A DNA stretch of 64,000 bases from a virus. Below are positions 3,655-63,800 of this stretch, one piece after another (positions within the stretch are counted from its first letter, which is position 1; each line of letters begins with the position of its first letter). The DNA lies in the IMG/VR virus record IMGVR_UViG_3300029267_002476; one strand, given 5' to 3'. Made by a program: the position numbers and the translations under genes. A model generated the notes under the pieces. It saw nothing but the letters and a program-made list of their open reading frames with translations. It had not been told where the DNA came from and did no database searches.

Positions 3655-3911
3655 CGAGCCCTCCGTTTTCTCTGTCTCTTAGATCGATTTCGAATCGTTT
3701 GCGAACTCAAGTTCGCGACCTCTCTCCTTGTCCATCTGTCGACTGTCGCCATAATAAGACACAAAGGAATCACCGGCCAGAGAAGGACAGTAATCAACGC
3801 GCCCTCCCCCTTAAGGCCCGAGCCATGAACCGCTTCAACAACAACCAGCACAATAGCGAACAGCATACCTACAAGCAGATAGGCCAACACCCATGCAATA
3901 GGATCGCCCAC
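3651..3911 (-). CDS. small membrane protein with basic C-terminal tail
   Basis: Two hydrophobic helices (IAWVLAYLLVGMLFAIVLVVV, ALITVLLWPVIPLCLIMA). The tail reads through palindrome 3701-3716. Confidence 0.5.
   Translation of the reverse strand: MGDPIAWVLAYLLVGMLFAIVLVVVEAVHGSGLKGEGALITVLLWPVIPLCLIMATVDRWTRREVANLSSQTIRNRSKRQRKRRAR
3701..3716. promoter_or_regulatory. 16-bp palindrome GCGAACTCAAGTTCGC (family copy 1)
   Basis: Perfect inverted repeat. 46 nt upstream of the start at 3654. Confidence 0.8.
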
Positions 3912-4295
3912 TTATACGCCCATTATTTCACGAGCCCTGCTCACGAGAAATGCCCTGATGTACTGAGGCAACGTCCCGTCTGGAAAAACCATATGATTGC
4001 CAATAACGGATCTGGCTACCCCGAGCCAATGATCCCCGCGCACCCCAGCAAGGGTCTGCCACGACGAATACGAGAATCGAACCCATTCCCACGGGTCACT
4101 GCTCCCTGGGCCACCCTCTTTATCAATCTCATACATTGAAACGGGGACATTAGGCCAGACCGCAATGGCGCGAGCCATCTCTGGAGAGATAGCATTTACC
4201 ATTGACACATTTTCATCGTGGCGCTCTTTGTACGAGATTAGAATGTCCTCAAACTCACTTATGCGCGACGGAATGACACTACTACTATCCAACAT
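3912..4295 (-). CDS. hypothetical protein
   Basis: 127-aa ORF abutting the downstream gene. Confidence 0.5.
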   Translation of the reverse strand: MLDSSSVIPSRISEFEDILISYKERHDENVSMVNAISPEMARAIAVWPNVPVSMYEIDKEGGPGSSDPWEWVRFSYSSWQTLAGVRGDHWLGVARSVIGNHMVFPDGTLPQYIRAFLVSRAREIMGV

Positions 4296-4305
4296 GCTAT
4301 ACCTC

Positions 4306-4500
4306 CTAAATCACAACAATCCGTTGAAGCTCCCCGTCCTTTCCCTTGCTGTACAGGTCCTCATTCACGGACTTGTGCAAAAGCGACACTGCCATGCGGA
4401 CAACCGCCGCCATTGTCTTAGCCCGGCACTTTGCCTTACAGTCATTCACCATTTCTCTGACGTCACCATCCAACGCTACAACAAAGCGATCTCTCATCAT
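4306..4500 (-). CDS. small protein, possible ribbon-helix-helix DNA-binding fold
   Basis: 64 aa. N-terminal beta-like RFVVALDGDV is followed by two helical segments. It is the first gene after a TTGACA element. Confidence 0.35.
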   Translation of the reverse strand: MMRDRFVVALDGDVREMVNDCKAKCRAKTMAAVVRMAVSLLHKSVNEDLYSKGKDGELQRIVVI

Positions 4501-4595: not shown

Positions 4596-4608
4596 CGAAA
4601 GGATATAA

Positions 4609-5954: not shown

Positions 5955-5970
5955 ACGAACTCAAGTTCGC
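5955..5970. promoter_or_regulatory. palindrome family copy 2 (ACGAACTCAAGTTCGC, 15/16)
   Basis: Intergenic, 62 nt upstream of the methylase start. TATGAT lies 14 nt downstream on the minus strand. Confidence 0.75.
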
Positions 5971-5976
5971 ATGGCA

Positions 5977-6411
5977 CTAGCGCCTGCGACGAATACCCAG
6001 CTTGGCCTTAATAGCCGTCAGATCATCCTTCTGCCCATCCAACTTCTCATCCACCTGATCGATCTTGATCTTGGCGCGAGATTGCTCCTCGCGCATCGCA
6101 TTCATTTGGACATTTAGAACCTTCTGCTCGGTTCTCACTTCGCCCTGAGCATCCTTGACCTTCGACAGTGCACCCTCTACGCCCTTCACCCTGTCAGCCA
6201 TGCTGCCGATGCTGTAGTACAATGCACCTGCTGCAAAGACAATGGGAGTAGCCCAGGTTATGATCTTGATCCATATGTCCTTGGACATTGACCCTTGCTG
6301 CTGAGTCCCAGGCGCATAACTATAATGTCGATTTCGCATTTTTGCTCCTGAGCTGTCTGGGGTTTCCTGATCGGGTTTTGGAATAGGGACAGGTTTTGTA
6401 TTCTCTCTCAT
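5977..6411 (-). CDS. membrane-anchored coiled-coil protein
   Basis: ATG at 6411 follows a TAGGAGAGGG SD. TM segment IITWATPIVFAAGALYYSI, then a heptad-like charged region. Confidence 0.5.
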   Translation of the reverse strand: MRENTKPVPIPKPDQETPDSSGAKMRNRHYSYAPGTQQQGSMSKDIWIKIITWATPIVFAAGALYYSIGSMADRVKGVEGALSKVKDAQGEVRTEQKVLNVQMNAMREEQSRAKIKIDQVDEKLDGQKDDLTAIKAKLGIRRRR

Positions 6412-6544
6412 GCCCTCTCCTAAACTGCACGCAAAGCAACACGTGCCACAGTAATAAAATAACACCTGAGTGATTCTATCTCAATACAGAAACAAATTGT
6501 TGAATAATAACGAAGCGTCTTAATCCAGGGCGCGGAGTAACCTG

Positions 6545-7991: not shown

Positions 7992-8318
7992 CTACTTAAA
8001 CGCCGCGTTCATCCATTTTGCTATGGCCCTCCAAATTCGAGCCATAAGCGGTATCTTCGGAGCAGGAATGTACGAAATCATACGCTCCCTGCCCTTGTGA
8101 TCATAGAGCCTCACCGTTACAACTTTTCGATCTCTCTCAGGGACATCTATCACCCACGACCCCCCTCCAGGGGTATCGATGCTGACCTTGTCCTTCTTTT
8201 CCTCTTTTTTTGCCATGGAAACACCAGAGTCGCAATCAAGATGCGAGTCCGATCCTACACGATGCTCATCGCTTTCGCTATAATATCCAACGCTGCACTT
8301 TTTGCCGTTGCTATTCAT
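7992..8318 (-). CDS. hypothetical protein
   Basis: 108-aa ORF, 8-nt overlap with the upstream gene. Confidence 0.45.
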   Translation of the reverse strand: MNSNGKKCSVGYYSESDEHRVGSDSHLDCDSGVSMAKKEEKKDKVSIDTPGGGSWVIDVPERDRKVVTVRLYDHKGRERMISYIPAPKIPLMARIWRAIAKWMNAAFK

Positions 8319-8601
8319 TGGATCCTTTGTCCCATGGCCATTCCCCTACCTTTATATTGACAGACATCCTGGTCGTCATCAACGACCGAGCCGTCCCAGC
8401 TGGCCCACGAGCTACCATGTTGCGCCTCTCAAGCGACTTGACCAAATCAGCAACTGCATTCGTGGATCCTATGCCCAGGTACTCGCAAAGCTCTCGCAAA
8501 GTGGGAGCCACGCCCAACTCACCCCATAGGTGCTCGATAGCATTAACAACATCCATCTGGCGCTTCGTAGGCTCTTTACCCACTGATCCATATCTCTGCA
8601 T
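8311..8601 (-). CDS. LexA N-terminal-type winged-helix DNA-binding protein (no peptidase domain)
   Basis: PTKRQMDVVNAIEHLWGELGVAPTLRELCEYLGIGSTNAVADLVKSLERRNMV parallels the LexA DNA-binding domain. Only 96 aa. Confidence 0.55.
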   Translation of the reverse strand: MQRYGSVGKEPTKRQMDVVNAIEHLWGELGVAPTLRELCEYLGIGSTNAVADLVKSLERRNMVARGPAGTARSLMTTRMSVNIKVGEWPWDKGSNE

Positions 8602-10051: not shown

Positions 10052-10067
10052 GCGAACTCAAGTTCGC
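10052..10067. promoter_or_regulatory. palindrome family copy 3 (GCGAACTCAAGTTCGC)
   Basis: Perfect. Exactly 12 nt upstream of ATG 10039. A TTGACA lies 11 nt further upstream (10079-10084). Confidence 0.8.
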
Positions 10068-13593: not shown

Positions 13594-13648
13594 TAGATTG
13601 TTCCTTTTGAATAGACGACTGCGACACCTCGCCGCAAATACGCACTAT

Positions 13649-13677
13649 CTGTTACTGATTGCCTTGGATTTTGTCAA
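13649..13677 (-). promoter_or_regulatory. sigma70-like promoter (GTTGACAAA, N17, TAACAG)
   Basis: Lies in the 235-nt non-coding gap upstream of 13593. Confidence 0.45.
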
Positions 13678-13822
13678 CTGGAAATAACTAGAAAAACACC
13701 GTCCCACTTTCATGCCTGGCAGGCCCGGTGCCTCCTCGCCAGATCCGACGCAGCCACAAGCGCCGGTAGAGAGGTTCTAGGGTAACCTCCCACATGATTC
13801 ACGTCGATTAACAGGATTCGAC

Positions 13823-13838
13823 GCGAACTTAAGTTCGT
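13823..13838. promoter_or_regulatory. palindrome family copy 4 (GCGAACTTAAGTTCGT, 15/16)
   Basis: Contains the TAA stop (13829-13831) of the upstream gene. Confidence 0.75.
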
Positions 13839-14389
13839 TTTTCAGGATTGCGGATAATGTCCGCTTCTTCGCCTATCCTAACACCAATCTCCTCAGAGAG
13901 TTCATGTATAGTTTGCTCGATTGAATCTTTGTCGCCCACGTGCCTCGACAGCGCCACGTCGACCTTGAAGCTATCCATCCCCTCACCCTTGATGGTAAGG
14001 CCGTACTCAAGCCACACAGACCGCTTCACGCCAAACCCGTCCAGCTTCGGAAACGGCTTCTTAATGACGTCTTGCCCTCTGACCGACGCCTCCTCTCTGT
14101 CGAGGACATGCTTGACCCCCTCGATCATCATGGCATGGGCAAGATGTCGCTCGTCCGAGTTCGGGTTGTGCAACCCGATCCTTATGCCCATGTTGACTCT
14201 CGAAAACTCAAAATTACCAAGTGAAATAGTCCGACCCATCGACACGACGAGATCGTCCGTGTCCTCAGCAGTCTGCTCAACCGGTTTACCGGCATCGTAC
14301 ACGTATTCTTTCACCAACTTCTGATTGCCTCCTCGGTTCGTCACTGTGACCAGTGTCGAATCCTTGCCGTCAACTATTCTCGTCTTCAT
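13829..14389 (-). CDS. hypothetical protein
   Basis: 186-aa ORF. No motif recognised. Confidence 0.5.
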   Translation of the reverse strand: MKTRIVDGKDSTLVTVTNRGGNQKLVKEYVYDAGKPVEQTAEDTDDLVVSMGRTISLGNFEFSRVNMGIRIGLHNPNSDERHLAHAMMIEGVKHVLDREEASVRGQDVIKKPFPKLDGFGVKRSVWLEYGLTIKGEGMDSFKVDVALSRHVGDKDSIEQTIHELSEEIGVRIGEEADIIRNPEKRT

Positions 14390-18006: not shown

Positions 18007-20616
18007 CTAAAACGACGTAGCCTCGTCCTTGTAGTCATCCTCTTCTTCTGGCATCTCGTCGTACACCATCTTGTCAAAATCCCACCGGATGGAAATCGAA
18101 TCCCTCTTAAACTGACCACGCCGGATCTTTATCGGCTTCATTTTGAGAATGCCGTCGTCCTTGTCATCCTTGGTCTGCTCAAGGGCAATCACTGTATGGG
18201 CATCCTGGCCAACTTCATCCGCATTCGCTATCGTTCCAAGCCTGGCCCCGCCGCCCTTTTTCTCCGAAAGTTCCGCCGACCTGTTTTGTTGTGAATAACC
18301 AACCGCTGCATAGTTGCCCCTCTTACATGACCTCTTGAGCCACTCTACGCCCGCTATCGTCCTCTCTCGCCTGTCGCCCTTAATATGCAAATCGTAGACT
18401 GAATCCACGACTACGCACTCCGCGTCCGTGGCCCTGATCGCAGAGTCTATCCCAGCCGGGGATATGTCATCCTCTTCGTCCATTATCCAGAGATTCTCCG
18501 ATGGATGGGACGCAACAGCACTAAGACTCTCTACCGTCCTCTCCAGTTGGGGTAGCTCGAAATCAGACAATTCGCCAGAGATTAAACGTTTGTACGAAAC
18601 ACAGGAATGGATGACAAAAAACCGCTCTGCAATCTCCTCCTTGGACATCTCAGGAGAGACAAGAAGAACCCGCTTGCCACATAACCAAGCATGGCGAGCA
18701 GCAATGATAGCCACAAACGTGTTGTGAACAACCATGTCGTTTGCAACATAGGCATGCCCGTCCATTACTGTTAAATCGAACACCCTGTGAACGCCGTCGT
18801 CCTCTATGGATTCAATGCGATCCCAGTGATTAACCAGCAGATGCTCAAGATGCTTGGCGTCAAAAGCATCGACAAACGCACGGAATATGCGCCTGCTTAC
18901 TGTGTTCCTCCTGTAGAGCTTGTTCGCGCTGATCCGCACCGTCATCCCAAGCTCACGCGACATCTGCTCATAGCGACGTACTCGCCCGCTCTCATGAAAC
19001 CCTTCAACAATGTGAAGTATCTCCGCTTTCAACTTCGGAGTAATCGGAATGTTATCAACGTTCGGATTCTTAGCATTTTTCAGCAAACGAGCCTTCTCCG
19101 CCTTCTCGCCAACTATCGGTATCTGCTCCTTGAAACGCTCATACGAAGTCGCATAGACCTTGTATATCCAACTATCGAATACGCCCGTCTGACACTTCGA
19201 TCTCTTGTACCTGATTCCGCCGTGTATTCCGAACCTTAAAAACAACCTCTGTATCTGCTCAACCATCTCCTTGGAGGCAAGACCTATCTCGATAGTGCAA
19301 TAGCCATTTTTACCAACAGGAAACGAACCATCGCAGCTCCAGAGCATACCAAGGAACTTGGCCAAGGATTCGTTGTCATACTGGAACACTCTATCAGGAA
19401 TCACCTTGTTCTTTGATAGCGATCTACAGCATCCCCACTCGTCCCATTTCTTCCAAAAATTACGACCACCTTTCACCCTGTAACGACCGTCGTCTTTGCC
19501 CTTTATCATCGGAACAAGCTCACAACCATGATATGACACTGCCTCACGCACAAAACTCACAATCGCCTGATCTCTTTTTGTAAACGTAGGTACATCCTGG
19601 GTCACACCTCCATCAGCCAACATTGCAGCAATGAGCATCGACTCATTGTCACCTACCTTAAACGCCATCTCAGGCTCAGGAACAATACCCACCGCCTCAG
19701 CGTAATCGCCGATCTTAAGTTCGTCCGTCCGCTTCCACCCGTCTACCGTCATCACTGGATGCTCTGGGGTCTGAGACATCTCCCGCCCGCTATAAAAGCG
19801 GACCTTCATACACTCCTTTGTCCCCATATCCAGCCAAGCATCAGGAGTAACACCCACAATAGAACCATTAGACTTTCGGGTGAGAACGTCGTCTCTATCC
19901 TTGACAACCTGCTCTATGGTCTTGTATTGTCCAGTCTTCTTGATGTAGGTTAATGTGCGGGCATGTAGGCATTTCCCTGTGCCGGGGCGGGCCACGAACA
20001 TCGTCAATGTTTTAGGCCACAACCCCGCTGTCATATCATCCAGCGATTTCCAAGGCAGAGGGATCCCCCTGAACCCACTTGCCACCTTGCCGTACGACTC
20101 AAGAACCTGATCACCCATGCCCAACAGACTCATCGGCATGTTAGATTTCTCAAGATCCCTGGTAGCCAGCGCTAGGCCCTCTAACGCCTCTGTCACATGC
20201 AGGGCGTCTCCGCTTGAGAACCCTGCCTCTACGACAATGCGAGCAGCATGGATGACGTTCCTGACCCCTGACAGCTCTCTCACAATCTTGGAGTAATGCT
20301 CTGCATTCGCCGCCGCCGAAATATTATCGGCCAGATCCATCAGCTCGACAGCACCCCCCGCCTTGGAAAGCTCTCCGGTCTTCATCATCTCGTGGCCAAG
20401 GGTAACGTGATCCACTGGCATGCCGCCCTTGGATACACGCTCCATTGCCTTGTATATAATCTTATGGGTTTCGAAGAAAAAGTCGGACGGCTCGATTATC
20501 GTTGCCACGGTTTCCAAAACCGAATTATCCAACAGTACGCTACCCAGGATTTTGCGTTCAGCTTCTCGGTTAGAAGGCGGAACCCTTCCGTTGCCGACAT
20601 CGGCAGCATTCATCAT
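18007..20616 (-). CDS. dnaB: DnaB-family replicative helicase interrupted by an intein
   Basis: N-terminal EAERKILGSVLLDNS. The Walker A motif ARPGTGK|...|TFVAIIAA is split. Downstream are VVVDSVYDL and YSQQNR motifs. Confidence 0.85.
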   Translation of the reverse strand: MMNAADVGNGRVPPSNREAERKILGSVLLDNSVLETVATIIEPSDFFFETHKIIYKAMERVSKGGMPVDHVTLGHEMMKTGELSKAGGAVELMDLADNISAAANAEHYSKIVRELSGVRNVIHAARIVVEAGFSSGDALHVTEALEGLALATRDLEKSNMPMSLLGMGDQVLESYGKVASGFRGIPLPWKSLDDMTAGLWPKTLTMFVARPGTGKCLHARTLTYIKKTGQYKTIEQVVKDRDDVLTRKSNGSIVGVTPDAWLDMGTKECMKVRFYSGREMSQTPEHPVMTVDGWKRTDELKIGDYAEAVGIVPEPEMAFKVGDNESMLIAAMLADGGVTQDVPTFTKRDQAIVSFVREAVSYHGCELVPMIKGKDDGRYRVKGGRNFWKKWDEWGCCRSLSKNKVIPDRVFQYDNESLAKFLGMLWSCDGSFPVGKNGYCTIEIGLASKEMVEQIQRLFLRFGIHGGIRYKRSKCQTGVFDSWIYKVYATSYERFKEQIPIVGEKAEKARLLKNAKNPNVDNIPITPKLKAEILHIVEGFHESGRVRRYEQMSRELGMTVRISANKLYRRNTVSRRIFRAFVDAFDAKHLEHLLVNHWDRIESIEDDGVHRVFDLTVMDGHAYVANDMVVHNTFVAIIAARHAWLCGKRVLLVSPEMSKEEIAERFFVIHSCVSYKRLISGELSDFELPQLERTVESLSAVASHPSENLWIMDEEDDISPAGIDSAIRATDAECVVVDSVYDLHIKGDRRERTIAGVEWLKRSCKRGNYAAVGYSQQNRSAELSEKKGGGARLGTIANADEVGQDAHTVIALEQTKDDKDDGILKMKPIKIRRGQFKRDSISIRWDFDKMVYDEMPEEEDDYKDEATSF
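18721..19971 (-). mobile_element. class-1 intein (417 aa) with LAGLIDADG homing endonuclease, inserted in the DnaB P-loop
   Basis: Starts at Cys216 (CLHARTL) and has block B TPEHPV. Two LAGLIDADG-like motifs (LIAAMLADGG, LAKFLGMLWSCDGS). Ends VVHN|T. Excision restores GTGKT. Confidence 0.8.
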
Positions 20617-22579: not shown

Positions 22580-22903
22580 CTAATTTCGGGCACCAGCCCG
22601 CATATTCCCGCGAGCATTCCCCCGCGCATTATCCTCTTCTGTCACATAATCAAGATCGATTTTAATCTTGTGCTTCCCCGCAACCGCAGCCAGGAGAGCC
22701 CTCAGCGAAGTGGTCAAATAACCATTGCGCCCCACCACCTGGCCAACGTCGCCAGGATGAGTGTACAGTTCAACAGTCAAGCGGTATGGCCCTTCGCGAA
22801 CCTCCACAATTATATCATCAGGGTGATCAACAAAGTGCCGGACAGACCCCACGATTTCACGTGCGGCATCCAATATTTCAGAACTGATTCTGCTATCGCT
22901 CAT
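22580..22903 (-). CDS. KH-domain RNA-binding protein (KhpA/YlqC-like)
   Basis: IIVEVREGPYRLTVELYTHPGDVGQVVGRNGYLTTSLRALL matches the type-II KH GxxG pattern (VGRNG). Confidence 0.55.
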   Translation of the reverse strand: MSDSRISSEILDAAREIVGSVRHFVDHPDDIIVEVREGPYRLTVELYTHPGDVGQVVGRNGYLTTSLRALLAAVAGKHKIKIDLDYVTEEDNARGNARGNMRAGARN

Positions 22904-23272: not shown

Positions 23273-23288
23273 GCGAACTTGAGTTCGC
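23273..23288. promoter_or_regulatory. palindrome family copy 5 (GCGAACTTGAGTTCGC)
   Basis: Perfect. Intergenic, 50 nt upstream of the start at 23222. Confidence 0.8.
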
Positions 23289-28808: not shown

Positions 28809-30062
28809 CTAACGCATGGAGGTGGTTCCGTGCCTCAACGGACCAGTAATCTGGCACCTCCACACTTCGGACGGTTCCCGCCCGGATTGCTTGAAACCTC
28901 TCGATAGAATATTGATTGCGGCATTGTGATCGCGATTAGCCTCGAAACCACAAACAGGACAAGAATGCCACCTGTCCCCCAGCGACTTCTCGACATGCTC
29001 CCCACAACGGGCGCATTGCTGCGTCGTTCCACTCGGGTCTACTCGCTCAAACTGAGTGCCAGCTTCCACCGCTTTGTACTCAAGCTTTTGATAGAACATT
29101 CCCAGGCTTGCATCCAACATCGACCGATTGAGGCCGGATTTCTGTCTGATTTTACGACCCGGTTTCTCTAGCGTCCCCTTCGCCGACCGGATCATGTTTT
29201 TGATCTTGAGATCCTCCACAGCTATAAAGCAATATGCTCCGACTAGCATCGCAGAAATCTGATGAAGAAAATTCTTCCGTTGATTGGCGACTCGCCTATG
29301 AAGACGAGAAACCCTATCCTGAGCCTTGCTCTTATTCTTCGAACCGCGCTTTTTACGAGACGAATCTCGCTGAGCCGACTTGATTAGCTTCGAGGATTGG
29401 GCAAGATACTTCGGATTCTTTATCTCTATCCCGTTAGACAAATACGCAAGAACTTTAACTCCGCCATCAATACCTACTGAAGTGCGTGGATTTATCTCAG
29501 GGCGAAATACTGTGGTAATCGCGTGTCGATAACCAAACGTCGCAAACCATCTACCTTGTCGCCTTTGTACAGTGAGCGTTCTACGCTCTCCGTCCTCAAG
29601 AGGCACACGAGCCCTTCCTCGCATCGAGAAAAAACCGAGATTAGAAATCCGAAGTTTGCCACCTTTCTCCGTCCACTTCTCGACATTCCACCCTGCTGGA
29701 TCAGGATAGCAAAACGAATCATAGCGCTTGCGGTTCCTGAAACGCGGGAAACCAGCCTTCCCAGCTTTCATTTTGACTCGACGGAAGAAAGCAGAAAATG
29801 CTCGGTCAACCCGCCGAACAGTCTCTTGGAGAGCATGACTCCCAAGCGGATTAAACTCTGGCCTGTCGAGCTTGATGGCGGGAAGCTGATTCTGCTGATC
29901 GTTGTACGTGACGCGAATACCATTCTTTCGCCACGCATCACGTCGCTCTTGAAGCGCAGCGTTGTACATCTCACAGTGAAGACCGAGCCAACCAATTAAA
30001 ACTGATTCCTGTTTACTGGTTGGATAAAGTCGAAATTCGTAATTTCTAGTTGTGGTTTCCAC
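28809..30062 (-). CDS. tnpB: TnpB (IS200/IS605 OrfB) RNA-guided nuclease
   Basis: RuvC triad candidates GIDGG, AVEDL, RDHNAAINI. Zinc finger CARCG...CPVCG. GTG start. Confidence 0.85.
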   Translation of the reverse strand: METTTRNYEFRLYPTSKQESVLIGWLGLHCEMYNAALQERRDAWRKNGIRVTYNDQQNQLPAIKLDRPEFNPLGSHALQETVRRVDRAFSAFFRRVKMKAGKAGFPRFRNRKRYDSFCYPDPAGWNVEKWTEKGGKLRISNLGFFSMRGRARVPLEDGERRTLTVQRRQGRWFATFGYRHAITTVFRPEINPRTSVGIDGGVKVLAYLSNGIEIKNPKYLAQSSKLIKSAQRDSSRKKRGSKNKSKAQDRVSRLHRRVANQRKNFLHQISAMLVGAYCFIAVEDLKIKNMIRSAKGTLEKPGRKIRQKSGLNRSMLDASLGMFYQKLEYKAVEAGTQFERVDPSGTTQQCARCGEHVEKSLGDRWHSCPVCGFEANRDHNAAINILSRGFKQSGREPSEVWRCQITGPLRHGTTSMR

Positions 30063-33720: not shown

Positions 33721-33936
33721 TCAACTTGCTGCATATCCCGGATTTAGCCACTGATTAGCAACCGTTCGACCGCCCTGGTCTGCCACGTACTCAGAGACAG
33801 ACGCGCCCCACCTTGTTGCGATAGTGCTCGCCCTCTCCTCGGTGGTGAACACCCCGTATACAACCACGTCGACCCGCTGAATGGTTCCCGTGGAGCTTTT
33901 CTCTTCCGACGTCTTGGAAACAACATACAATGTCAT
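33721..33936 (-). CDS. hypothetical protein
   Basis: 71 aa. The start lies 12 nt from palindrome copy 6. GGGAG SD. Confidence 0.5.
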   Translation of the reverse strand: MTLYVVSKTSEEKSSTGTIQRVDVVVYGVFTTEERASTIATRWGASVSEYVADQGGRTVANQWLNPGYAAS

Positions 33937-33948: not shown

Positions 33949-33964
33949 GCGAACTTGAGTTCGC
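33949..33964. promoter_or_regulatory. palindrome family copy 6 (GCGAACTTGAGTTCGC)
   Basis: Perfect. It abuts the upstream TAG stop and lies 12 nt from ATG 33936. Confidence 0.8.
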
Positions 33965-34323
33965 TACCGTTTCCTCTTTGCTGGCTTCTTTTTTGCCCTC
34001 TTAGGCTGCCTTTTTCGCCAACCAGTGCGACCGATCATTTTGTACCGATACTGATCGCGTATCTGAGCCCACATGAACTTACCCTTGCTTCTGGCGTTGA
34101 TCATGTGGTGGTAGACCAAAAACGGGACATCGAAGTACTTGTAGATATTCCCCGAGACCTGAGATCGGCGAGTTGTGGAATCCTTCCAATATCGGATGTA
34201 CAGGATCCCTTTTAGATAGTCGTACCCCACCGAATGGACGTTGGAACTCTCAACTTCCTGCATTGCAGGTATTGATTCAGCTTCAATCATTTTTGCCTCT
34301 ATCAGTGCCCTCATGAATCCCAT
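33964..34323 (-). CDS. KTSC-domain protein with basic tail
   Basis: VESSNVHSVGYDYLKGILYIRY...YKYFDVPFLVYHHMINARSKGKFMW matches the KTSC pattern. Confidence 0.5.
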   Translation of the reverse strand: MGFMRALIEAKMIEAESIPAMQEVESSNVHSVGYDYLKGILYIRYWKDSTTRRSQVSGNIYKYFDVPFLVYHHMINARSKGKFMWAQIRDQYRYKMIGRTGWRKRQPKRAKKKPAKRKR

Positions 34324-36426: not shown

Positions 36427-36442
36427 GCGAACTCAAGTTCGC
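36427..36442. promoter_or_regulatory. palindrome family copy 7 (GCGAACTCAAGTTCGC)
   Basis: Perfect. It contains the TGA stop of the MT-A70 gene and lies 12 nt from the next start. Confidence 0.8.
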
Positions 36443-38001: not shown

Positions 38002-38030
38002 AATATGCGCGATCATTTTTTGCGTGTCAA
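38002..38030 (-). promoter_or_regulatory. second candidate minus-strand promoter (TTGACA, N17, CATATT)
   Basis: The minus strand reads TTGACAcgcaaaaaatgatcgcgCATATT. Confidence 0.4.
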
Positions 38031-38092: not shown

Positions 38093-38108
38093 GCGAACTT
38101 AAGTTCGT
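38093..38108. promoter_or_regulatory. palindrome family copy 8a (GCGAACTTAAGTTCGT, 15/16)
   Basis: Part of the 19-nt direct repeat ACCTGCGAACTTAAGTTCG (38089-38107 and 38129-38147). Confidence 0.8.
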
Positions 38109-38132: not shown

Positions 38133-38148
38133 GCGAACTTAAGTTCGC
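38133..38148. promoter_or_regulatory. palindrome family copy 8b (GCGAACTTAAGTTCGC)
   Basis: Perfect. 40 bp from copy 8a, between the divergent promoters. Confidence 0.8.
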
Positions 38149-38195: not shown

Positions 38196-38223
38196 TTGAC
38201 AAACCCATGCTATGCGTTATTTT
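38196..38223 (+). promoter_or_regulatory. plus-strand sigma70-like promoter (GTTGACAAA, N16, TATTTT)
   Basis: This is the only GTTGACAAA copy on the plus strand. It lies upstream of the plus-strand gene. Confidence 0.5.
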
Positions 38224-38323: not shown

Positions 38324-38566
38324 ATGGCAATGATCGGTGGTACTCCCATTGCCGACGGCAACACGCTCCGCATTCGCTTCAAAATGAGAGCGGCCAACAA
38401 GGCTAACCTTTTCAAGATAACGCTCAACTCAATGGACACTTATGACCTGGAATTCGGTCGAGTACACGGGATGAAATACAGGATCATCAAGGAGTACAAC
38501 GGCATCTACGCCGATCAACTCCAAGAGATCTTCCGGCAAGATACCTGTCTAGCTCTTAACCTCTAA
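38324..38566 (+). CDS. hypothetical protein (plus strand); the true start may be upstream at CTG 38258
   Basis: 80-aa ATG ORF. The frame is open from 38231. A strong GGGAGAGG SD at 38246-38253 precedes CTG 38258. Convergent with 38567-38929. Confidence 0.5.
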   Translation: MAMIGGTPIADGNTLRIRFKMRAANKANLFKITLNSMDTYDLEFGRVHGMKYRIIKEYNGIYADQLQEIFRQDTCLALNL

Positions 38567-38929
38567 TTAAGAAGTAACAATCGCTACGACAACGGCGCTC
38601 GCTGGGCTCGTGGTCCCCATTGTCCCGCCAGCCGTGACCACAGCAAACGAAAGATTACTGAAGTCCATGCCGCCCGGACAAACGATCTGGCGAACTTGGT
38701 TAGCAGGCACACGGAAGACGTGATCGGGAACCGTGGTCCCTATTGTGGGCGCCGCGTCGTCGTATATCTTCATGAACGAAGAAGACGAGTTTGCAGCATT
38801 ATCCACCTCGATCATGTAGATGGTCCCAGATGTCCCGGTGACATCATTGTTGGCCGTTGCGCCTGCGCTGGTCTCCTTGATTAGATTGGATCCAACTGGA
38901 GAAACTTGGGTGCTTACACTCAGTGTCAT
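38567..38929 (-). CDS. hypothetical structural-module protein
   Basis: 120 aa, Ser/Thr/Ala/Val-rich. It is the last gene of the long minus-strand structural block. Confidence 0.5.
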   Translation of the reverse strand: MTLSVSTQVSPVGSNLIKETSAGATANNDVTGTSGTIYMIEVDNAANSSSSFMKIYDDAAPTIGTTVPDHVFRVPANQVRQIVCPGGMDFSNLSFAVVTAGGTMGTTSPASAVVVAIVTS

Positions 38930-41854: not shown

Positions 41855-41996
41855 TGGGTGCCTCCATCCATGTTTCCTGTGCTTCTAGCGCCCCCATCAT
41901 CCTCCGAGCAGAGCGTTGCCGAGTTCGGAATGACTGATGGATTCTCCGTCGGACGTTCTTCATTGATACCTCCCAGGAATCGCATAAAAGCCGCCC

Positions 41997-42012
41997 GCGA
42001 ACTTGAGTTCGT
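41997..42012. promoter_or_regulatory. palindrome family copy 9 (GCGAACTTGAGTTCGT, 15/16)
   Basis: It abuts the TGA stop at 42012-42014 and lies 33 nt upstream of ATG 41963. Confidence 0.75.
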
Positions 42013-42242
42013 CACGTGATCACTCCTATTCCAGGCGGAACCAGAGCAGAACCACCCGGAGCTTCCGTCACGGATACCTCTGCGTTAGCCACTATGTAGT
42101 CTATGATCGCCGCCGCCTCTTTGTTCAGAGCCGGAGCATCCTTCTCCACCCTGTAACTCTTCCCCCACGCCTCTTTGCGAGCAGCAGCTATGGCGCCAGC
42201 AAGACCAGTCCCCAATAAAGCGTCCCCTGCCTCAAGCGCCAT
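42012..42242 (-). CDS. hypothetical Ala/Gly-rich small protein
   Basis: 76-aa ORF. Confidence 0.45.
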   Translation of the reverse strand: MALEAGDALLGTGLAGAIAAARKEAWGKSYRVEKDAPALNKEAAAIIDYIVANAEVSVTEAPGGSALVPPGIGVIT

Positions 42243-49317: not shown

Positions 49318-49333
49318 GCGAACTCAAGTTCGC
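49318..49333. promoter_or_regulatory. palindrome family copy 10 (GCGAACTCAAGTTCGC)
   Basis: Perfect. Exactly 12 nt upstream of ATG 49305. Confidence 0.8.
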
Positions 49334-50181: not shown

Positions 50182-51285
50182 CTAACAATTATTAACATAC
50201 GGCGACAGCAAACCCTCAAGTGCCAGCGTATCAATCCCGCCTGGCACTAGCTCTGTCAAAAACAACGAATAAGTAATGTCAAACGCGGGCGCGTAAATTT
50301 TACCGTTAGGTCCGAGGACTCGCCCATAAAACTTGTACTGAGACGCCTGATACCCAGTGTACGTGGTCGTGTCAGTCGAATCGTCGCCAGGGTCGATCAC
50401 AAGGGCATTCGTAAACAGCATTGGAAGGCAATAAATCTTGCCGTTTGGAGCTAGGATTCCTTGGCAATATTTGTTGCTACCAGTAAGGCTAGCGATCGTC
50501 GATTCATCCTTGCTATCGTCACTCGGGTCAACTATCAAAACCGACGTTCCATTTCTTGGGGAAAAGTAAATCTTGCCATTTGGAGCCAGGCAGCCTTGTC
50601 GCCACGAAGACGCAGCATATGTAGACATCGAAGCGATCGTTGTGATGTCAGTACTAGGCGTATCCACATCGATAATCAACACACTGTTGTGATTGTACGG
50701 AGCACAATAAATCTTTCCATTTTGCGCAAGGCAGCCGCCGTACCACTTCGCAGCCCCTGATGGTAGCCCAGTGAGTCCAGTTGTCGTACTGCTAAACGTA
50801 TTAGTTGACGGCGTGTATACACCGACGTTCTGAGCGCCAGACGGAATCAAATAGATATTTCCATTTGGATGCAAGGTCGCGCCGAGGTAATCAGAACTTC
50901 CGCCAACTCCTGTTTTGTGACTCGTGTTAACTTCGTGCGTTTCAGGATTTATAGACATTATTGTTGACACTGAACCGTAAGGAAAACAATAGATAAACCC
51001 ATCATGCGCAGCGACCGCCCCATAGCCAGACCACGAGCCACAATCGAGACGCTCCGTTGTTCCAGCAATCGGATCAATAACGAGCACCTTGGTACTCCCC
51101 GAATTACTTCCAGGTATAAAGTAAATCTTTCCGTTTGGTGCTAAACAACCTGCCGAAAGAGAAGCATCTGATATACTTGAATTTGTATATTCCGCAACAG
51201 GCGACGCATAATCAAAAAAGTCACACACATTACCAGACGTGAGTCTGCCAAGCACGTCAAATTTATTTCTTACCACTGTAGACAT
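50182..51285 (-). CDS. beta-propeller repeat protein, paralog 3 of 3 (putative receptor-binding/tail-tip)
   Basis: About seven repeats containing (A/G)PNGKIY(C/F)xP (APNGKIYFIP, HPNGNIYLIP, AQNGKIYCAP ...). Confidence 0.6.
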   Translation of the reverse strand: MSTVVRNKFDVLGRLTSGNVCDFFDYASPVAEYTNSSISDASLSAGCLAPNGKIYFIPGSNSGSTKVLVIDPIAGTTERLDCGSWSGYGAVAAHDGFIYCFPYGSVSTIMSINPETHEVNTSHKTGVGGSSDYLGATLHPNGNIYLIPSGAQNVGVYTPSTNTFSSTTTGLTGLPSGAAKWYGGCLAQNGKIYCAPYNHNSVLIIDVDTPSTDITTIASMSTYAASSWRQGCLAPNGKIYFSPRNGTSVLIVDPSDDSKDESTIASLTGSNKYCQGILAPNGKIYCLPMLFTNALVIDPGDDSTDTTTYTGYQASQYKFYGRVLGPNGKIYAPAFDITYSLFLTELVPGGIDTLALEGLLSPYVNNC

Positions 51286-51294
51286 CTTGGCTCC

Positions 51295-52377
51295 TCAGCT
51301 ATTTACGTACGATGTTAAAATTGGCTCAATCGGGTATTTTGAAAACCCAGGGGTGATAACAATGACCTCTGAATACCCATAAAACGGCGCACAATAAATC
51401 TTCCCGTCCGGCCCGAGTATCAGAAAGTAATTTTTGTAATCGTAGGTAGAAACAGGAATGCTGGTTTGGTCAATAGTGTCGTTCTCCGGGTCAATTATCC
51501 CAACATGGTTCGTCGACAGGGAGCTGCAATAGATCTTGCCGTCTGGTGCTAGGCAACTGTCCCCATATTTGTCGTTACCTGTCAGGCCAGTAATAGAGGT
51601 TTCTTCTGCTGTGTCCGCACTAGGGTCAATTATCAACACCGTCGTTGCATTCCTTGGGGCACAGTAAATCTTCCCATTATGCGCCAGTGTTCCTCCGTAG
51701 TATTTTGCTGAACCCGAATTGACACTGATCGTTGTCGTGTCCATAGTCTCAGCCACAACATCTATGATCCCTACGTAATTAACGCTGTACGGTGTGCAAT
51801 AGATTTTCCCATTAGATGCCAGCGCCGCACCTGAGAACTTACTCCCAGCAGGAGCCGTTATCGATGTCGTGTCCAATGTCTCATTCGATGGGTCGAAAAT
51901 ACCAACATGAGTTGCTGCGTAAGGAATCAAATATATCTTGCCATTCGGGTGCAGAACCGCTGCCGTATATTTTAGGGACCCTGTTATCCCAGTAACAACA
52001 TCTAACCGTACCTCATGCGTATATGGATTTAGAGATGTTATGTTTTCGTAACTGAACGGGAAAGAATAGATCAAACCATTCGGCGCTGAAATGCTCGACT
52101 GACCATCGTACGCAGCGCCAAAAGGAATCTCAACCATCGTTGGACCATTTACACCCGGAGTTAACTCTAAGATTCTATAATCCGCAGCACTGACCGGCAT
52201 GAAATAAATCTTTCCATTTTGGCCCAATGCGCCCTGCTGTGACTGTCTCGTGTATACTGATGGCGTAGTGAACGTTTCAGACCCTATAACATGCGATGCT
52301 TGTCGCATATACCCAGGCATGTTACCAGCGCTCAGACTCCCCCTGATTGCCGCATCATTTCGAATCTTGGTAGACAT
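51295..52377 (-). CDS. beta-propeller repeat protein, paralog 2 of 3
   Basis: Same NGKIY repeat architecture. Conserved N-terminus MSTKIRN and C-terminus ILTSYVNS. Confidence 0.6.
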   Translation of the reverse strand: MSTKIRNDAAIRGSLSAGNMPGYMRQASHVIGSETFTTPSVYTRQSQQGALGQNGKIYFMPVSAADYRILELTPGVNGPTMVEIPFGAAYDGQSSISAPNGLIYSFPFSYENITSLNPYTHEVRLDVVTGITGSLKYTAAVLHPNGKIYLIPYAATHVGIFDPSNETLDTTSITAPAGSKFSGAALASNGKIYCTPYSVNYVGIIDVVAETMDTTTISVNSGSAKYYGGTLAHNGKIYCAPRNATTVLIIDPSADTAEETSITGLTGNDKYGDSCLAPDGKIYCSSLSTNHVGIIDPENDTIDQTSIPVSTYDYKNYFLILGPDGKIYCAPFYGYSEVIVITPGFSKYPIEPILTSYVNS

Positions 52378-52386
52378 GCTGACTCC

Positions 52387-53490
52387 TTAACTGTTTTGGT
52401 ACGGGCTTAACAGCGGTGCAATTGGGTACTTGGCAATCCCTGGATTGATGACTGTAAACTTGTCAAACGTCCCCTCTGGAGGGCAATATATTTTCCCGTT
52501 TGGCGCTAGAACCATGCAATGATGCTTAAAGCTAGTCGATGACAATCCTGATATTGTTGTTGTATCTGCCGTGTCTGTTTCTGGGTCAATTATCAAGATA
52601 TTCGTTGCATCACTTGGGCAACAATAAATCTTTCCGTCTTGGGCCAGAACACTATTGCCGTACTTGTCCGTTCCTGTCAGCCCAGTGATAGAAGTTTCCT
52701 CGGCTGTATCGTCAGAGGTGTCAACTATCAAGACTTTCGTCGAACTTGTCGGTGGGAAATAGATTTTCCCATTATGCGCAAGCGTTCCAGGTGCATACCC
52801 TGAAGATACTCCTGTGATTGTAGTCCAGTCTGCTGTTCCTGCCTCTGGGTCAATTATCAAGACATTAGTTGCGCCACTTGGCGCACAATATATCTTACCA
52901 TTCGGAGCTAAGACGCCGCCATGATACATGTAAGAACCAGTTGGCCCAGTGATAGATGTGTCAATGGTGTTGTTGCTTGTATCAATCACTCCTATGTGAC
53001 CACTAGACGTTTGAACCCATGGCGCACAATATATCTTGCCATTCGGATGCAACGCCCCGCCTTTGTATAGCTCCGATGTAAGTCCAGTAATAGGGGCTAA
53101 CACCTCATGAGTGTCAGGGTTTATTGTCATCACCCTTGTGTCCTGCAATGGGACGCAATAAATCAAACCATTCGGCGCAAGCGCACAATAGACACCCTGC
53201 CATGTATACGGGGCTCCTATTGAGTCTAGTGAAAGCTGTTCATATTCAAGCCCATTATCAGTAATGGTCACCGCGAACGGTTTTTTGTCGGTCGACACTG
53301 AATATTGAACGCAATACAATTTTCCGTTTTGTGCCAAAACTATTCCACTGTTTGCGTTATAGCTCGTTGGCGGAACGGTGATTGTTGTCGCGCTAACAAC
53401 ACACGATGCCAACCTGTTATAAGTTGATAGATTTCTGCCTTCAGCGTTTTCAGTTACCTCAACAGCGTTTCTGTAAACCGTCCCTGGCAT
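52387..53490 (-). CDS. beta-propeller repeat protein, paralog 1 of 3
   Basis: Same NGKIY repeat architecture. The C-terminus LLSPYQNS parallels LLSPYVNNC. Confidence 0.6.
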   Translation of the reverse strand: MPGTVYRNAVEVTENAEGRNLSTYNRLASCVVSATTITVPPTSYNANSGIVLAQNGKLYCVQYSVSTDKKPFAVTITDNGLEYEQLSLDSIGAPYTWQGVYCALAPNGLIYCVPLQDTRVMTINPDTHEVLAPITGLTSELYKGGALHPNGKIYCAPWVQTSSGHIGVIDTSNNTIDTSITGPTGSYMYHGGVLAPNGKIYCAPSGATNVLIIDPEAGTADWTTITGVSSGYAPGTLAHNGKIYFPPTSSTKVLIVDTSDDTAEETSITGLTGTDKYGNSVLAQDGKIYCCPSDATNILIIDPETDTADTTTISGLSSTSFKHHCMVLAPNGKIYCPPEGTFDKFTVINPGIAKYPIAPLLSPYQNS

Positions 53491-60800: not shown

Positions 60801-63800
60801 AGAAGACGACGTTCGAAAGGACATGTTGCAGGGTCTTACGTTGGTAGCCCAATCACCCTCTGCGTCACAGTAAATGTAAGCCGCACCCTTTAGGATCCCA
60901 GCAGTCTCGTACCCCGCAAAGTTCAGTGCCCCTAAAGTGTCTCCGCTTTTGATAGCCGTGGGAGATGCAGCCGTTCCTCTACCCCTGCACATCGTAAAGA
61001 TGGGGAACACGTTAGTATCGTTCGTGTTGATCATCTTGAGGAATGTGTAGTTCGTGTCCTCCCTGGCCATATGGAGAGATGAATCTGGGGTATTAGTGCC
61101 AATTCCGAGATATTCGTTGGTCCCATCCCAATACAGATTAGCGTCGCCTTCGATAGTTCCGTCACCGGTCCAGACGCCCACCTGGTTATTTACGGGTGTT
61201 CCAACCTTGGTGACGTCTCCGCTCCCTGTCCCTGTATTGTCCAGGTTGACCCAGCTTGCGCCGTCGTACCCACGGAAATTACTACCGTCCCATTCGATAG
61301 CTCCTGCAACATTGGTATTTACCCAACTAGAGAGTTTGTGTCCTCCCGCTGTCTGATAAATGTCTCCAGAGCCTTGGATGATCAGCGTAGTCGAGCCAGC
61401 TGCTGTTCCCTTGGCAACAGAGAACACGTTATCCGTATTCCCCATGGTCGCCGAACCAGTACCGCCGTCGGACTTGCGAGACATTAGATGAACGCCACCG
61501 CGAGAGGAGGTAGTTGTAGTTGTCGAAGGGGTCTGAACTCGCGAACTTAAGTTCACCCCTACTTCGTTTCCTGTAGAGGCACAACCTGTAAGCTGGACGC
61601 CACCCAGCGTCCCGTTCCACTTATTGAACGATCCATACGTATCGGCCTCTTCGGATCCCGTGAACGGATGCGAAACGTCCGAGCTTTTAAGGGTCAGAAT
61701 CTTCAGATCCCCTGTCCCTTGCTGCAATGTCAGTCCGCCAGGATCAACATCAGGAGATGCCGTGTTCCCAGTCGATACTCGTCCGTTTCCCGTGATCCTG
61801 AGTCTCTCAACCCCGAGATCGCTAACGGTCGAAGAGGACGTGCGGAACGACAGGTATGTTGGGCGGATATTTGTGCTCCAGTCACCCTCTGCAACACCGT
61901 AGATGTAAGCGGACCCTTTCCGGTTCCCCGTGCCATCTGCTTCGACGCCTGCCCAACTTATAACGCCAAGGTTGTCCCCGGTTTCCACTGCCAGGGGAGA
62001 CGCCTCTGTGCCCCTTCCACGAGAGAAGGAAAGGCTGCCGTGTTCTCCAGTGTTGTTTGTGTTCTGGAGGATAATATCAGACGCATTCGCGTCCTCTCTC
62101 GAAATGAAAAGAGATGCTGCTGGATTAGAGGTCCCGATCCCCAAGGCTTCATTTGTCCCATCCCAGACAAAGTCAGCGTCGCCTTCGATAGTCCCGTCAC
62201 CGGTCCAAACACCAATCTGATTATTTGCTGGCGTTCCGACCTTGGTTACATCCCCACTGCCCCCAAGGTCACTCACGAGCGCTTTCTTTAGGTTTCCACT
62301 GTCACTTGTGTCGCTCAATAACACGTAATCAGCACCGTCCGCTGTGACGGTGCCCTTGCCAGTAATGGCAGCGTTAGCCAGCGTTAGAGCCCCAGAACCA
62401 GTCGCGTCTCCCGTGTGAGTCGCGTTGGTAGTTTTAGCGGTATTGAGCCCGATGGCCGTATCCATTATCTCGATCTTGTCCCGGATCGCATTCTTGGACG
62501 CAGCATCGGTATTGGCATTCCAGCTCGTAGCGTTGTAAGCAATGTCGCTGACCGTTACCGCTGTGGCACCATCCGCCACATTGATCATAGCCCTGACCTG
62601 GGTCGCTGTTAATTCAACAACCGGCTCACCTGCCCCTGCGACGTTACCCAGGATTCTCTCATCCGCTACAACGTTCTGCATCTTCGCGTAAGTAACAGCG
62701 TCGGCAGCTATAGTGAGCGCACCGTCCCCGGTCACATCACCTGTATGCGTAGCGTTTGTGACTTTCAACGTATTGGCAGCCACATCGGTTCCAATATCGA
62801 TCCCGTCTACCGTACCGCCAACAACAATATTTCCACCGACACTTAGGTTACTACCATCGAACGTGAGATCAGTGTCCCCTTCAATGGTTCCGTCCCCGGT
62901 CCATACGCCAACTTGATTATCTACAGGAGTCCCGACCTTGGAAACATCACCGGCCCCGGCTGGAACGGACCACGTGTTGTCACCACGCAGGAATGTGGTT
63001 GCGCCTGGAGTTCCGGATGCGCTCAGCATCGCAATGTCGACTGCGCCCGCAGCAATGGTCAGCGCTCCATCACCGGTTACGTCCCCCGTATGGGTCGCAT
63101 TCGTGACTTTAGCCGTGTTGAGACCGACCGCTGTTTCGATAGCGTCGAGGTCAACAGCCTGGGTTACCGAAATGTGGCCGACCTTGGTTTTCTCGGCGTC
63201 CGTGTATGCGTTCGTGTCAGAGTTGGACTCGTACTGCGTCTTGATACTCGCAGCAGACAAATTAGCCTGCGTGATCACCCAGTGCGCTGCCGTGGTCGGA
63301 GCATCCTGCTTTGCGGTAAGCATGTCGCCAATCTCGACATCAATCGTAAAGAAGGTTCCGGCAACAGTTACGTCGTACACATCTCCGATTTCAATCGATG
63401 AACTAGGGGAGACATCCAGGTCAGGAGTATTCGTATCCGCGTTATACCCGCCCTTGTATGCCTTGGCACTAGCAACCACAGAGCCAACATACGCTACGAT
63501 GGACTGCTGCGATGCGACTTTCGTGGCATCGTCAGAGGCCATATTGTCCTCATCCAGGAAGTACCCATTACCGGCCAAGGAAGTGTCCGCATTTAACGTC
63601 GCCCCAGTTACCGTGGTGTCTATCTCGTCAATAGCGTCCTGGTAGTTCGTAGCAGTCAGGCCAGAGGATGTGTTGTCGTACTCAGATTTACCCTTTGGTA
63701 CATAATCTGAACTGTCTACGTAGATTACAGCCGATCCACTCGCAGCGTTCGAGATCCTCTGTTCTGCAACAACATCGGCGAAATCAGCAGTGATCACAGA

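Follow-up and report, generated by a model that had tools for sequence, protein, structure and literature searches.

A conserved 16-bp palindrome with the core of the Gram-positive LexA box recurs at cistron boundaries in a clade of uncultivated large tailed phages

The 64,000-nucleotide stretch of DNA analysed here (the window; IMG/VR virus record IMGVR_UViG_3300029267_002476) is part of an uncultivated large tailed phage and carries twelve copies of a 16-bp palindrome. The element is real, is under selection, and is conserved through a broad clade of uncultivated phages. In its refined form, it reads [G/A]CGAACT-YR-AGTTCG[C/T] and thus contains CGAAC-N4-GTTCG, which is the operator consensus of LexA (DinR) in B. 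subtilis, S. aureus, and B. thuringiensis (PMC4551915, PMC9578287). The same phage possesses a gene for a small protein that consists of a LexA-type DNA-binding domain only. By analogy, the palindrome may be a LexA-type operator that acts as a stoperator-like transcription gate, with this protein as a candidate binder; the proposal is the best of the explanations considered here, and it is advanced tentatively, at somewhat less than an even chance.

A search of the window with the pattern GCGAACTYRAGTTCGC returned seven exact matches and, when up to two mismatches were permitted, twelve matches, each with at most one mismatch. Dinucleotide-preserving shuffles gave a mean of 0.00 exact matches and of 0.03 matches with up to two mismatches. 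In four of the five imperfect copies, the mismatch falls at position 1 or 16, and in the fifth (at 61541) it falls at position 15. A palindrome scan with arms of 6 or 7 bp revealed no second recurrent family in the window. Since virtually every gene lies on the minus strand, the contexts of all copies were read on that strand. Nine copies are mostly non-coding, two lie over the last codons of genes (13823 and 36427), and one is intragenic (61541); as the non-coding share of the window is 6.3% by a liberal gene list, the binomial probability of at least nine mostly non-coding copies is p = 3e-9. An earlier note, made from the sequence alone, had listed the same twelve copies, described seven as perfect and five as bearing a single outer mismatch, placed the chance expectation far below one, and located eleven copies between cistrons or in gene termini. 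All of this is borne out, the eleven copies falling within the 6% of the window that is non-coding or terminal, and the four stop codons that the note had placed inside or against the motif (13829, 36433, 33964, and 42012) agree with the ends of the open reading frames (ORFs).

The earlier note had also regarded the palindrome as a selected element and proposed conservation in related genomes as the test; relatives do keep the motif, orthologous junctions included. In IMG/VR, a scan for the exact pattern gave at least 102 loci (cited below by L-numbers). Approximately one-third of the loci listed are single matches on unskewed, mostly high-GC contigs, which is the number that chance predicts, while the remaining loci listed show several copies per contig and a strong excess of G over C on the coding strand, as in the window. 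By tblastx, several of the multi-copy contigs are protein-level relatives of the window, with 45-65% amino acid identity; they include IMGVR 3300017990_000012 (17990_12; 125 kb), 3300028840_003497 (176 kb), 3300017987_000003 (195 kb), 3300034989_000065, and 3300034989_000084. At the DNA level, the window and its relatives are only 66-72% identical where they can be aligned, and the motif arms are unchanged across relatives whose GC content ranges from 33% to 56%. In particular, at window copy 36427, which corresponds to L051 6140 and L017 6583, the 16-mer is the sole invariant block in the alignment. Further orthologous pairs link copy 23273 with L015 2768, copies 10052 and 5955 with L025 9353 and 4684, respectively, and copy 49318 with L052 674. 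Site loss at an orthologous position is exemplified by a low-GC relative (L108 1820-1840), in which the site upstream of the promoter of the operon containing a 105-amino-acid gene and a KH gene has decayed to GTGAAATCGAGTTTGT, with four mismatches.

The LexA-box core is shared by eleven of the twelve window copies, the exception being 61541, in which the right half reads GTTCA, and by all perfect copies in the relatives; the consensus is the Gram-positive one and may not be that of the host. The candidate trans factor is encoded at 8311..8601 on the minus strand. The protein consists of 96 amino acids and comprises only the winged helix-turn-helix (HTH) DNA-binding domain of LexA (Pfam PF01726, with an E value of 5.6e-9 that passes the curated cut-off); it lacks both the S24 peptidase domain and the dimerisation domain. 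LexA chains were its only significant sequence matches in the PDB. Its AlphaFold model (predicted local distance difference test score, pLDDT, of 73) contains three helices and a two-strand wing; in a Foldseek search, this model was closest to 3JSP/3JSO, which are complexes of LexA with DNA, and to LexA of T. maritima. Copies 10052 and 5955 flank the operon of the LexA-like gene, and motif copies (L115 7556 and 12274) likewise lie on both sides of a homologue of 159 amino acids in the relative 17990_12 (L011 7933-8412). Moreover, in four unrelated viral contigs, genes for Gram-positive-type LexA DNA-binding domains have a GAAC-N4-GTTC box 60-280 bp upstream. The earlier note had listed the winged HTH protein at 8311-8601 among the candidate binders, which stands, but it had missed the identity of the motif core with the Gram-positive LexA (SOS) box. 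Among cultured phages, the LexA-like protein matched only a protein of Myxococcus phage Mx4, with 43% identity; a word-indexed protein search returned only the protein itself and one relative with 68% identity, and a RecA-based locus search for more LexA-like genes yielded one truncated locus.

The anatomy of the motif was derived from 93-109 non-redundant copies in coding-strand orientation. Invariance reaches 99-100% at positions 2-7 and 10-15; G occupies position 1 in 85% of copies and A in the rest, while position 16 has C in 89% and T in the others; in the flanks, no position is conserved apart from a purine-rich Shine-Dalgarno sequence (SD) downstream. The centre is YR in 40 of 41 copies, compared with an expected 25%; these 41 copies have arm mismatches and therefore could not have been ascertained by the scan. 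All four YR dinucleotides are found as centres, and the low-GC subclade has mostly CG. YR is a flexible step that is typical of the dyad of dimer-bound operators. In genomes with a GC content of at least 0.48, CA and TG centres occur on the coding strand in a ratio of 29:22, and the two swap between orthologous sites, as at copy 23273, the centre of which is flipped from CA to TG in L015; the earlier observation that the centre shows no strand preference therefore holds.

Whether the palindrome is a dimeric DNA-binding site or an RNA hairpin had been left undecided in the earlier note; the evidence now leans towards the DNA site, and the hairpin is less favoured. In polycistronic mRNA, the motif could form a hairpin with a 6-bp stem and a UYRA loop that marks a processing site, protects transcript ends, or insulates or enhances ribosome-binding sites, and its reader might be an RNA-binding phage protein such as the conserved KH protein encoded at 22580-22903. 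We consider this unlikely, though it has several points in its favour. The predicted stability, -6.7 kcal/mol for six pairs, is moderate; the KH protein is of the KhpA type and is kept at 70% and 49% identity in relatives, and a motif copy precedes the KH operon in two genomes; copies between tRNA genes could help processing; and the motif often lies directly before an SD and closely behind a stop codon (see below). On the other hand, the arms are invariant in genomes of 33-56% GC and no compensatory stem variants were found across them, which is unusual for a structural RNA. UCAA and UUGA loops are chemically different as RNA, yet they are interchangeable and are flipped between orthologues. 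Variants of the G.U type (GCGAAC...GTTCGT; 10 copies) are not in excess over those of the A.C type (ACGAAC...GTTCGC; 14 copies), the stem ends with the 16-mer, as the flanking bases beyond it are not complementary, and no Rfam family matched the motif. An RNA function also accords poorly with a conserved copy in the middle of a coding sequence and with a tandem pair that lies between divergent promoters, past a terminator-like hairpin, and is perhaps untranscribed. Thus, the invariant arms, the YR centre and its lack of orientation, the absence of a G.U preference, the unextended stem, the copies that adjoin tRNA genes or are intragenic, and the tandem pair favour recognition of double-stranded DNA. 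An apparent G-C to A-T 'covariation' of the outermost pair was rejected, as it is confined to the low-GC subclade and does not exceed expectation.

The positions of the motif fall into several classes. Among 101 unique copies, 43 end 0-4 nt before an SD, with the start codon 9-22 nt downstream, compared with 9.8% of random positions drawn from the same segments; the stop codon of the upstream ORF lies within or just 5' of the motif in 53, and both features occur together in 28. The motif sits 5' of the SD and does not contain it. In a second class, copies are located 10-40 nt upstream of ordinary promoters (window copy 23273; L015, L025 4684, L044/L068, L065, L077, and L086). A third class adjoins tRNA genes: the copy at L011 5491 stops 2 nt before a tRNA, and a degenerate copy (L018 1995) fills the 19-nt spacer between tRNA-Ala and tRNA-Arg in L018. 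The fourth class is a single orthologous site inside a head gene of 285 amino acids that follows the portal gene (L024 244-1101 and L076 5143-6000). Here, the motif is encoded as CGA ACT CRA GTT CGC (R-T-Q/R-V-R) and is kept at the nucleotide level even at 35% GC, as well as in each of the four orthologues that had been retrieved as bystanders and not by way of the motif. A codon-conservation test on this copy was discarded as circular, since the loci had been ascertained by the motif itself, and only these four bystander orthologues count. The copies before and between tRNA genes, together with the conserved intragenic copy, indicate that the function of the motif is not tied to translation starts.

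Promoters in the window were best located by a k-mer census, which found TTGACAAA eleven times on the coding strand and once on the opposite strand; a generic sigma-70 promoter scan did not rise above shuffles. Nine of the eleven minus-strand occurrences are intergenic (37929, 35239, 27762, 23262, 17994, 13677, 11914, 4595, and 3121) and are followed approximately 17 nt further on by weak TAAnnT-like -10 hexamers, while two are intragenic (49774 and 3300). The plus-strand occurrence (38196) precedes the only plus-strand gene, 38324-38566. The set looks like the host-type (possibly early) promoters of the phage. Only one of the approximately nine intergenic promoters of this kind adjoins a motif, which lies 10 nt upstream of the -35 element; the other copies are located at cistron junctions or at distances of 60-200 nt. 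A fixed distance between the motif and a -35 or -10 element was not found. Along the minus strand, predicted promoters (P) and motif copies (M) follow one another in the order P38030/37929, M36427, P35239, M33949, P27762, M23273, P23262, P17994, M13823, P13677, P11914, P10163, M10052, M5955, P4595, M3701, and P3121. This alternation amounts to 13 runs compared with 9.2 +/- 1.9 expected; it was counted post hoc, and it is suggestive of the layout expected of a conditional stop inside promoter-driven units. The motif itself is not an intrinsic terminator, as eleven of the twelve copies lack a U-tract on the coding strand. In this respect, the earlier note was correct in its conclusion and nearly so in its premise that no U-tract follows any copy: copy 5955, alone among the twelve, is followed by a coding-strand T-run (TGTTTTATTTATTTT), and it scored as terminator-like.

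In the explanation favoured here, the palindrome would be a double-stranded DNA operator with the half-site GCGAACT and a YR dinucleotide as its centre, and a winged-helix dimer from the LexA family would read its two halves symmetrically. The candidate binders, which are not mutually exclusive, are the truncated LexA homologue of the phage (8311-8601), which is devoid of the cleavage domain, and the LexA of the host. The bound dimer would form a roadblock to elongating RNA polymerase, so that each promoter-driven unit would be divided in two, a proximal part and a distal one that is expressed conditionally, and the tandem pair in the divergent control region would permit cooperative binding. 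We infer two steps here, namely, that a LexA-family protein binds the motif and that its binding blocks read-through; the second is suggested by where the sites lie, namely, not on promoters but at junctions between cistrons, within 5' leaders, just ahead of a following promoter, and in tRNA arrays. It has also been considered that, throughout the clade (33-56% GC), approximately 30 high-affinity SOS-box palindromes make LexA a genome-wide transcription gate, in which case the LexA in question could be that of the host, a cleavage-proof phage copy, or both in competition; this wider form is improbable as matters stand.

Several observations weigh against the proposed gate. With respect to position, 43% of the copies end 0-4 nt before an SD, and even the copies in large gaps (10052 and 49318) abut an SD downstream of a predicted promoter, an arrangement that a role of the RNA in translation or mRNA stability would also predict. 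In addition, the sites do not overlap predicted promoters, unlike classical SOS boxes. With respect to the binder, the link between motif and protein is drawn by analogy only. L025 keeps both flanking motif copies, but the LexA-like gene is gone from the syntenic place; the two homologues known in the clade are only 38% identical and have different lengths, 96 and 159 amino acids, and a pattern search of IMG/VR found a LexA-like gene in one contig of the clade only. The recognition helix reads STNAVADLV in the window protein and STNGVMDHL in L011; it is closer in appearance to LexA of proteobacteria and myxobacteria than to the Gram-positive type, and in two viral contigs with a similar helix (L112 and L114) no such box was found within 10 kb. 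Moreover, the site bound by the truncated LexA homologue gp6 of phage GIL01 is not a LexA box (PMC6182141). A universal cis element requires a universal trans factor; therefore, host LexA or another core phage factor is a serious candidate for the binder. As to the locus from which the gene is missing, L025 6648-7884, compared with window 7992-8601, contains a gene of 224 amino acids for a metallophosphoesterase-like protein and an unrelated ORF of 250 amino acids in place of the LexA-like gene and a gene of 108 amino acids, and this is a module swap within an otherwise collinear operon.

The palindrome might instead be a double-stranded DNA site for a different core protein of the phage or serve a non-transcriptional process; possible processes are organisation or condensation of the nucleoid, replication or recombination hot spots, site-specific nicking, and ParB-like loading. 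This is as doubtful as the RNA hairpin. The evidence from DNA symmetry applies to it equally, the cis element is universal in the clade although the LexA-like gene is not syntenic, and no family could be assigned to most proteins of the window. In addition, the phage encodes a fusion of ParB_N with a methyltransferase as well as two further methylase domains, a transcriptional role was likewise doubted in the Cluster O study, which noted recombination between copies of its palindrome (PMC4351075), and the terminus of an ENA contig lies exactly at a motif copy (L105 19701-19716). However, the cistron-boundary bias (p = 3e-9) points to gene expression, the exact match of the core to a known operator consensus would have to be a coincidence, and the ParB_N fusion has no recognisable HTH for parS binding, for which reason parS itself was rejected. 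Methylation or restriction does not explain the motif either: its centre, CTYRAG, is an SmlI site, but conservation over 16 bp far exceeds that site. The contig mentioned above is k141_145865 of ENA ERZ27256796, a 142,886-bp assembly of the same phage; this perfect copy makes up its first 16 bases, approximately 1.1 kb past the left edge of the window, and the terminus may be due to chance, an assembly break, or a physical end.

It is considerably less probable that the motif is a promoter, or an activator site close to a promoter, which an RNA polymerase modified by the phage would use in middle or late transcription. Copies do precede many genes that lack TTGACAAA, structural ones included (49318 and 41997), a TTGACA-like hexamer is found 17-18 nt before the motif centre in three cases (10052, 38133, and 3701), and gp6 of GIL01 is an activator (PMC6182141). 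Nevertheless, a perfect palindrome lacks direction, -35 and -10 elements are not conserved at a fixed distance from it, and the start codon follows 9-19 nt past the motif, so that class I or class II geometry would put the transcription start inside the gene; copies between tRNA genes, within a gene, and just upstream of ordinary promoters are equally hard to accommodate. An N4-type hairpin promoter was also rejected: neither PHROG nor Pfam yielded a match for the window protein of 2050 amino acids, which is encoded amid tail genes. Finally, a host repeat resembling repetitive extragenic palindromic (REP) elements or a selfish miniature repeat with no phage function is very improbable, since, although the motif is short, palindromic, and intergenic and two TnpB (IS605 OrfB) genes are present, it is exactly conserved at 33-56% GC and keeps its orthologous positions amid diverged flanks, copies do not adjoin the TnpB gene ends (which also eliminated IS605 or REP ends), and single-copy matches in unrelated viral contigs remain at chance level.

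The individual copies are described here in order along the window. Copy 3701..3716 is perfect, with a coding-strand TG centre; it is found 46 nt ahead of the ATG with which gene 3654..3202 begins, within an intergenic gap of 257 nt. Copy 5955..5970 has one outer mismatch and is positioned 6 nt past the stop codon of gene 6465..5977, upstream of the ParB-methyltransferase gene. The perfect copy 10052..10067 abuts the SD (GAGGAGG) and ATG (10039) of the first gene in the operon of the LexA-like gene, approximately 60 nt downstream of a predicted promoter (10163-10136). Copy 13823..13838, with one mismatch, holds the TAA stop codon of gene 14389..13829 in its centre, 146 nt upstream of the TTGACAAA promoter at 13677, and the perfect copy 23273..23288 is located 10 nt upstream of the -35 element TTGACAAA (23262) of the operon formed by the 105-amino-acid gene and the KH gene. 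Perfect copy 33949..33964 fills a 27-nt gap between gene 34323..33964, the TAG stop codon of which overlaps the first base of the motif, and the SD and ATG of gene 33936..33721. In the likewise perfect copy 36427..36442, the TGA stop codon of the MT-A70 methylase gene lies in the centre and is followed by GAGGAGG and a GTG start codon (36414).

Copies 38093..38108 (one mismatch) and 38133..38148 (perfect) form the tandem pair. They are spaced 40 bp from centre to centre, about four helical turns, in a divergent control region of approximately 520 bp, just after a terminator-like hairpin, and the DNA that holds them may be untranscribed. The two predicted divergent promoters between which they lie are a sigma-70-type promoter on the minus strand (38002..38030; TTGACA-17-CATATT), downstream of the pair, which serves the leftward operon, and a plus-strand promoter, TTGACAAA...TATTTT (38196..38223), which serves gene 38324-38566. 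This gene is the only convincing one on the plus strand; it encodes 80 amino acids of no recognised family, is served by a divergent promoter of its own, and is convergent with gene 38929..38567. Of the remaining copies, 41997..42012 (one mismatch) overlaps the TGA stop codon that ends gene 42242..42012, and the ATG at 41963 follows 33 nt downstream. The perfect copy 49318..49333 lies 12 nt upstream of the ATG of a structural gene of 936 amino acids, in a 203-nt gap that also contains a terminator-like hairpin and a promoter-like site (49487-49460). Copy 61541..61556, with the degenerate right arm GTTCAC, is inside the gene of 2050 amino acids and is probably non-functional.

Two long non-coding gaps, 13594-13828 (235 nt) and 3655-3911 (257 nt), each start with a motif copy; tRNA and Rfam scans found nothing in them, and they may yet hold small RNAs or small ORFs. 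Two promoter-leader regions on the minus strand, 35239-35165 and 3121-3040, are nearly identical (TTGACAAA..tttgcagga.gtaa.ttgta.agtgagagg...) and show a GC-rich, hairpin-like stretch before the ATG; they may represent a conserved 5' leader element.

Both the ORF map and the gene calls on identical public contigs assign virtually every gene of the window to the minus strand, and the GC skew of the plus strand is strongly negative throughout. Identical genes occur on metagenomic contigs of up to 143-158 kb, and one contig of 158,289 bp also encodes the LexA-like protein. Recognisable genes encode an intein-containing DnaB, a RecA/UvsX-like recombinase, a helicase, the ParB_N-methyltransferase, the MT-A70 methylase, two TnpB proteins, a contractile-tail tube protein, and a beta-helix protein; no family assignment was obtained for most of the window proteins. 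A megablast comparison of 10 kb of the window with phage records gave no match, a tblastn search with the protein of 936 amino acids found no match among cultured phages, and no tRNAs and no Rfam match (Rfam 15, gathering threshold) were detected in the window. A comparison of RecA with the PDB did not tell lineages apart. The host may be Firmicutes-like, as a purine-rich, strongly G-skewed coding strand and strong GGAGG SDs are typical of such a host. The excess of G over C on the coding strand (GC skew 0.1-0.45) is found in the window and in all loci of the clade (e.g., L026, L027, L054, and L055); it is independent of genomic GC content (33-56%) and is thus a signature of the clade.

Among the other features of the window, the DnaB-type replicative helicase gene (18007-20616, minus strand) is split by an intein with a LAGLIDADG homing endonuclease domain. 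The two TnpB genes (IS605 OrfB / Cas12f-like TNB; 28809-30062 and 32265-33446, minus strand) have no TnpA nearby, and a search of a genome collection with TnpB gave one match, with 36% identity, in a metagenome-assembled genome of Steroidobacteraceae. The region 50182-53490 (minus strand) comprises three tandem paralogous genes of approximately 365 amino acids, each of which repeats a unit internally; the recurrent DNA words, GATAATTGACC and AAGATTTATT, correspond to a peptide of the type ..DGKIYC.P.., and the trio is probably a repeat-rich tail-fibre or receptor-binding set. In the relatives, tRNA genes form arrays of 16-18, and there are also a tmRNA that encodes the tag VENYEPMQAAA and a tRNA in which the anticodon loop (ccta) is 8 nt long; these features are located at L018 1345-3291, L068 3255-5441, and L115 7573-7647 and 10798-11161.

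To our knowledge, genome-wide conserved palindromes are found in few phage groups (e.g., Cluster O), and none has an assigned binder or function. The combination of a recognisable operator identity, an encoded candidate binder, and deep conservation turns what would be an unknown repeat into a testable hypothesis. If the genome-wide form of the proposed gate is correct, it would be a palindromic, LexA-based counterpart of stoperators and a second, symmetric kind of stoperator, and most operons of the phage would be coupled to, or deliberately uncoupled from, the DNA-damage state of the host. If LexA-family proteins gate approximately 30 sites, SOS-linked control of phages would grow from single promoters to the architecture of a whole genome. 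Independently of function, the motif and the coding-strand G-over-C skew are practical markers of this uncultivated clade in metagenomes.

The statement in the earlier note that no described phage element has this sequence still holds, as none was found and a full-text sequence search gave primer coincidences only. The note's own comparisons have fared less well: the likeness to start-associated sequences (SAS) is weak, since the motif is palindromic, precedes the SD, and is start-adjacent in only about 43% of copies, and the analogy with the RNase III hairpins of T7 fails because a stem of six pairs with -6.7 kcal/mol is too short for an RNase III site. Closer analogues are the 17-bp palindromes of Cluster O and the stoperators of Cluster A. 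In sequence, the nearest element is the Gram-positive LexA (SOS, 'Cheo') box, a palindrome with a four-base centre, the 14-bp core of which is the same in eleven of the twelve window copies. The sites described here are, however, much less degenerate than the boxes of LexA regulons, with an invariant T/A beside the core, a YR centre, and G/C flanks in 85-89% of copies, and they number approximately 12 per 64 kb at cistron boundaries, whereas SOS boxes are located on the promoters of DNA-repair genes. Phage GIL01 offers a direct precedent: LexA boxes of the host type mediate its repression, and its late promoter is activated by gp6, a truncated homologue of LexA that binds to a palindromic site (PMC6182141). 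Both phages thus combine LexA-type boxes with a protein made up solely of LexA's DNA-binding domain, and gp6 binds a 14-bp palindrome (PMC6182141, PMC4551915). However, GIL01 is a 15-kb tectivirus with few boxes, on promoters P1 and P3, and its gp6 site is GACACAC-GTGTGAC, whereas the phage studied here is a tailed phage of about 140-160 kb with sites genome-wide.

The nearest formal analogue is the 17-bp palindrome TGTTCGGNNNCCGAACA of Cluster O mycobacteriophages, which has been proposed as the site of a dimeric protein (PMC4351075). Its 7-bp arms are invariant and enclose a short centre that varies; it favours short intergenic regions, shows no bias in orientation, occurs in more than 30 copies per genome, some of them intragenic, and is absent from the host. 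Its sequence differs, with everted GTTCG/CGAAC pentamers and a centre of 3 bp instead of 2 bp, and it is known from five very similar genomes, whereas the motif described here spans protein identities of 45-65% and a GC range of 23 points. The SAS/ESAS of Cluster K mycobacteriophages (PMC3203893) are conserved short repeats just upstream of some start codons and, as here, often contain the upstream stop codon; they are asymmetric, occur in one orientation, contain the SD, and lie 3-7 bp from the start, whereas the palindrome lies 5' of the SD. SAS are start-adjacent, and here fewer than half of the copies are. The stoperators of Cluster A mycobacteriophages (L5 gp71 type; PMC9283540) are repressor sites and resemble the motif in their many copies dispersed in short intergenic regions; the mechanism proposed for the motif is also theirs, as they block elongation within operons. 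Unlike the motif, they are 13 bp long, asymmetric, read by a monomer, and oriented with transcription, and they belong to a temperate immunity system. The element is therefore placed outside each of the families compared, as a set of genome-wide operator-like repeats with LexA-box identity.

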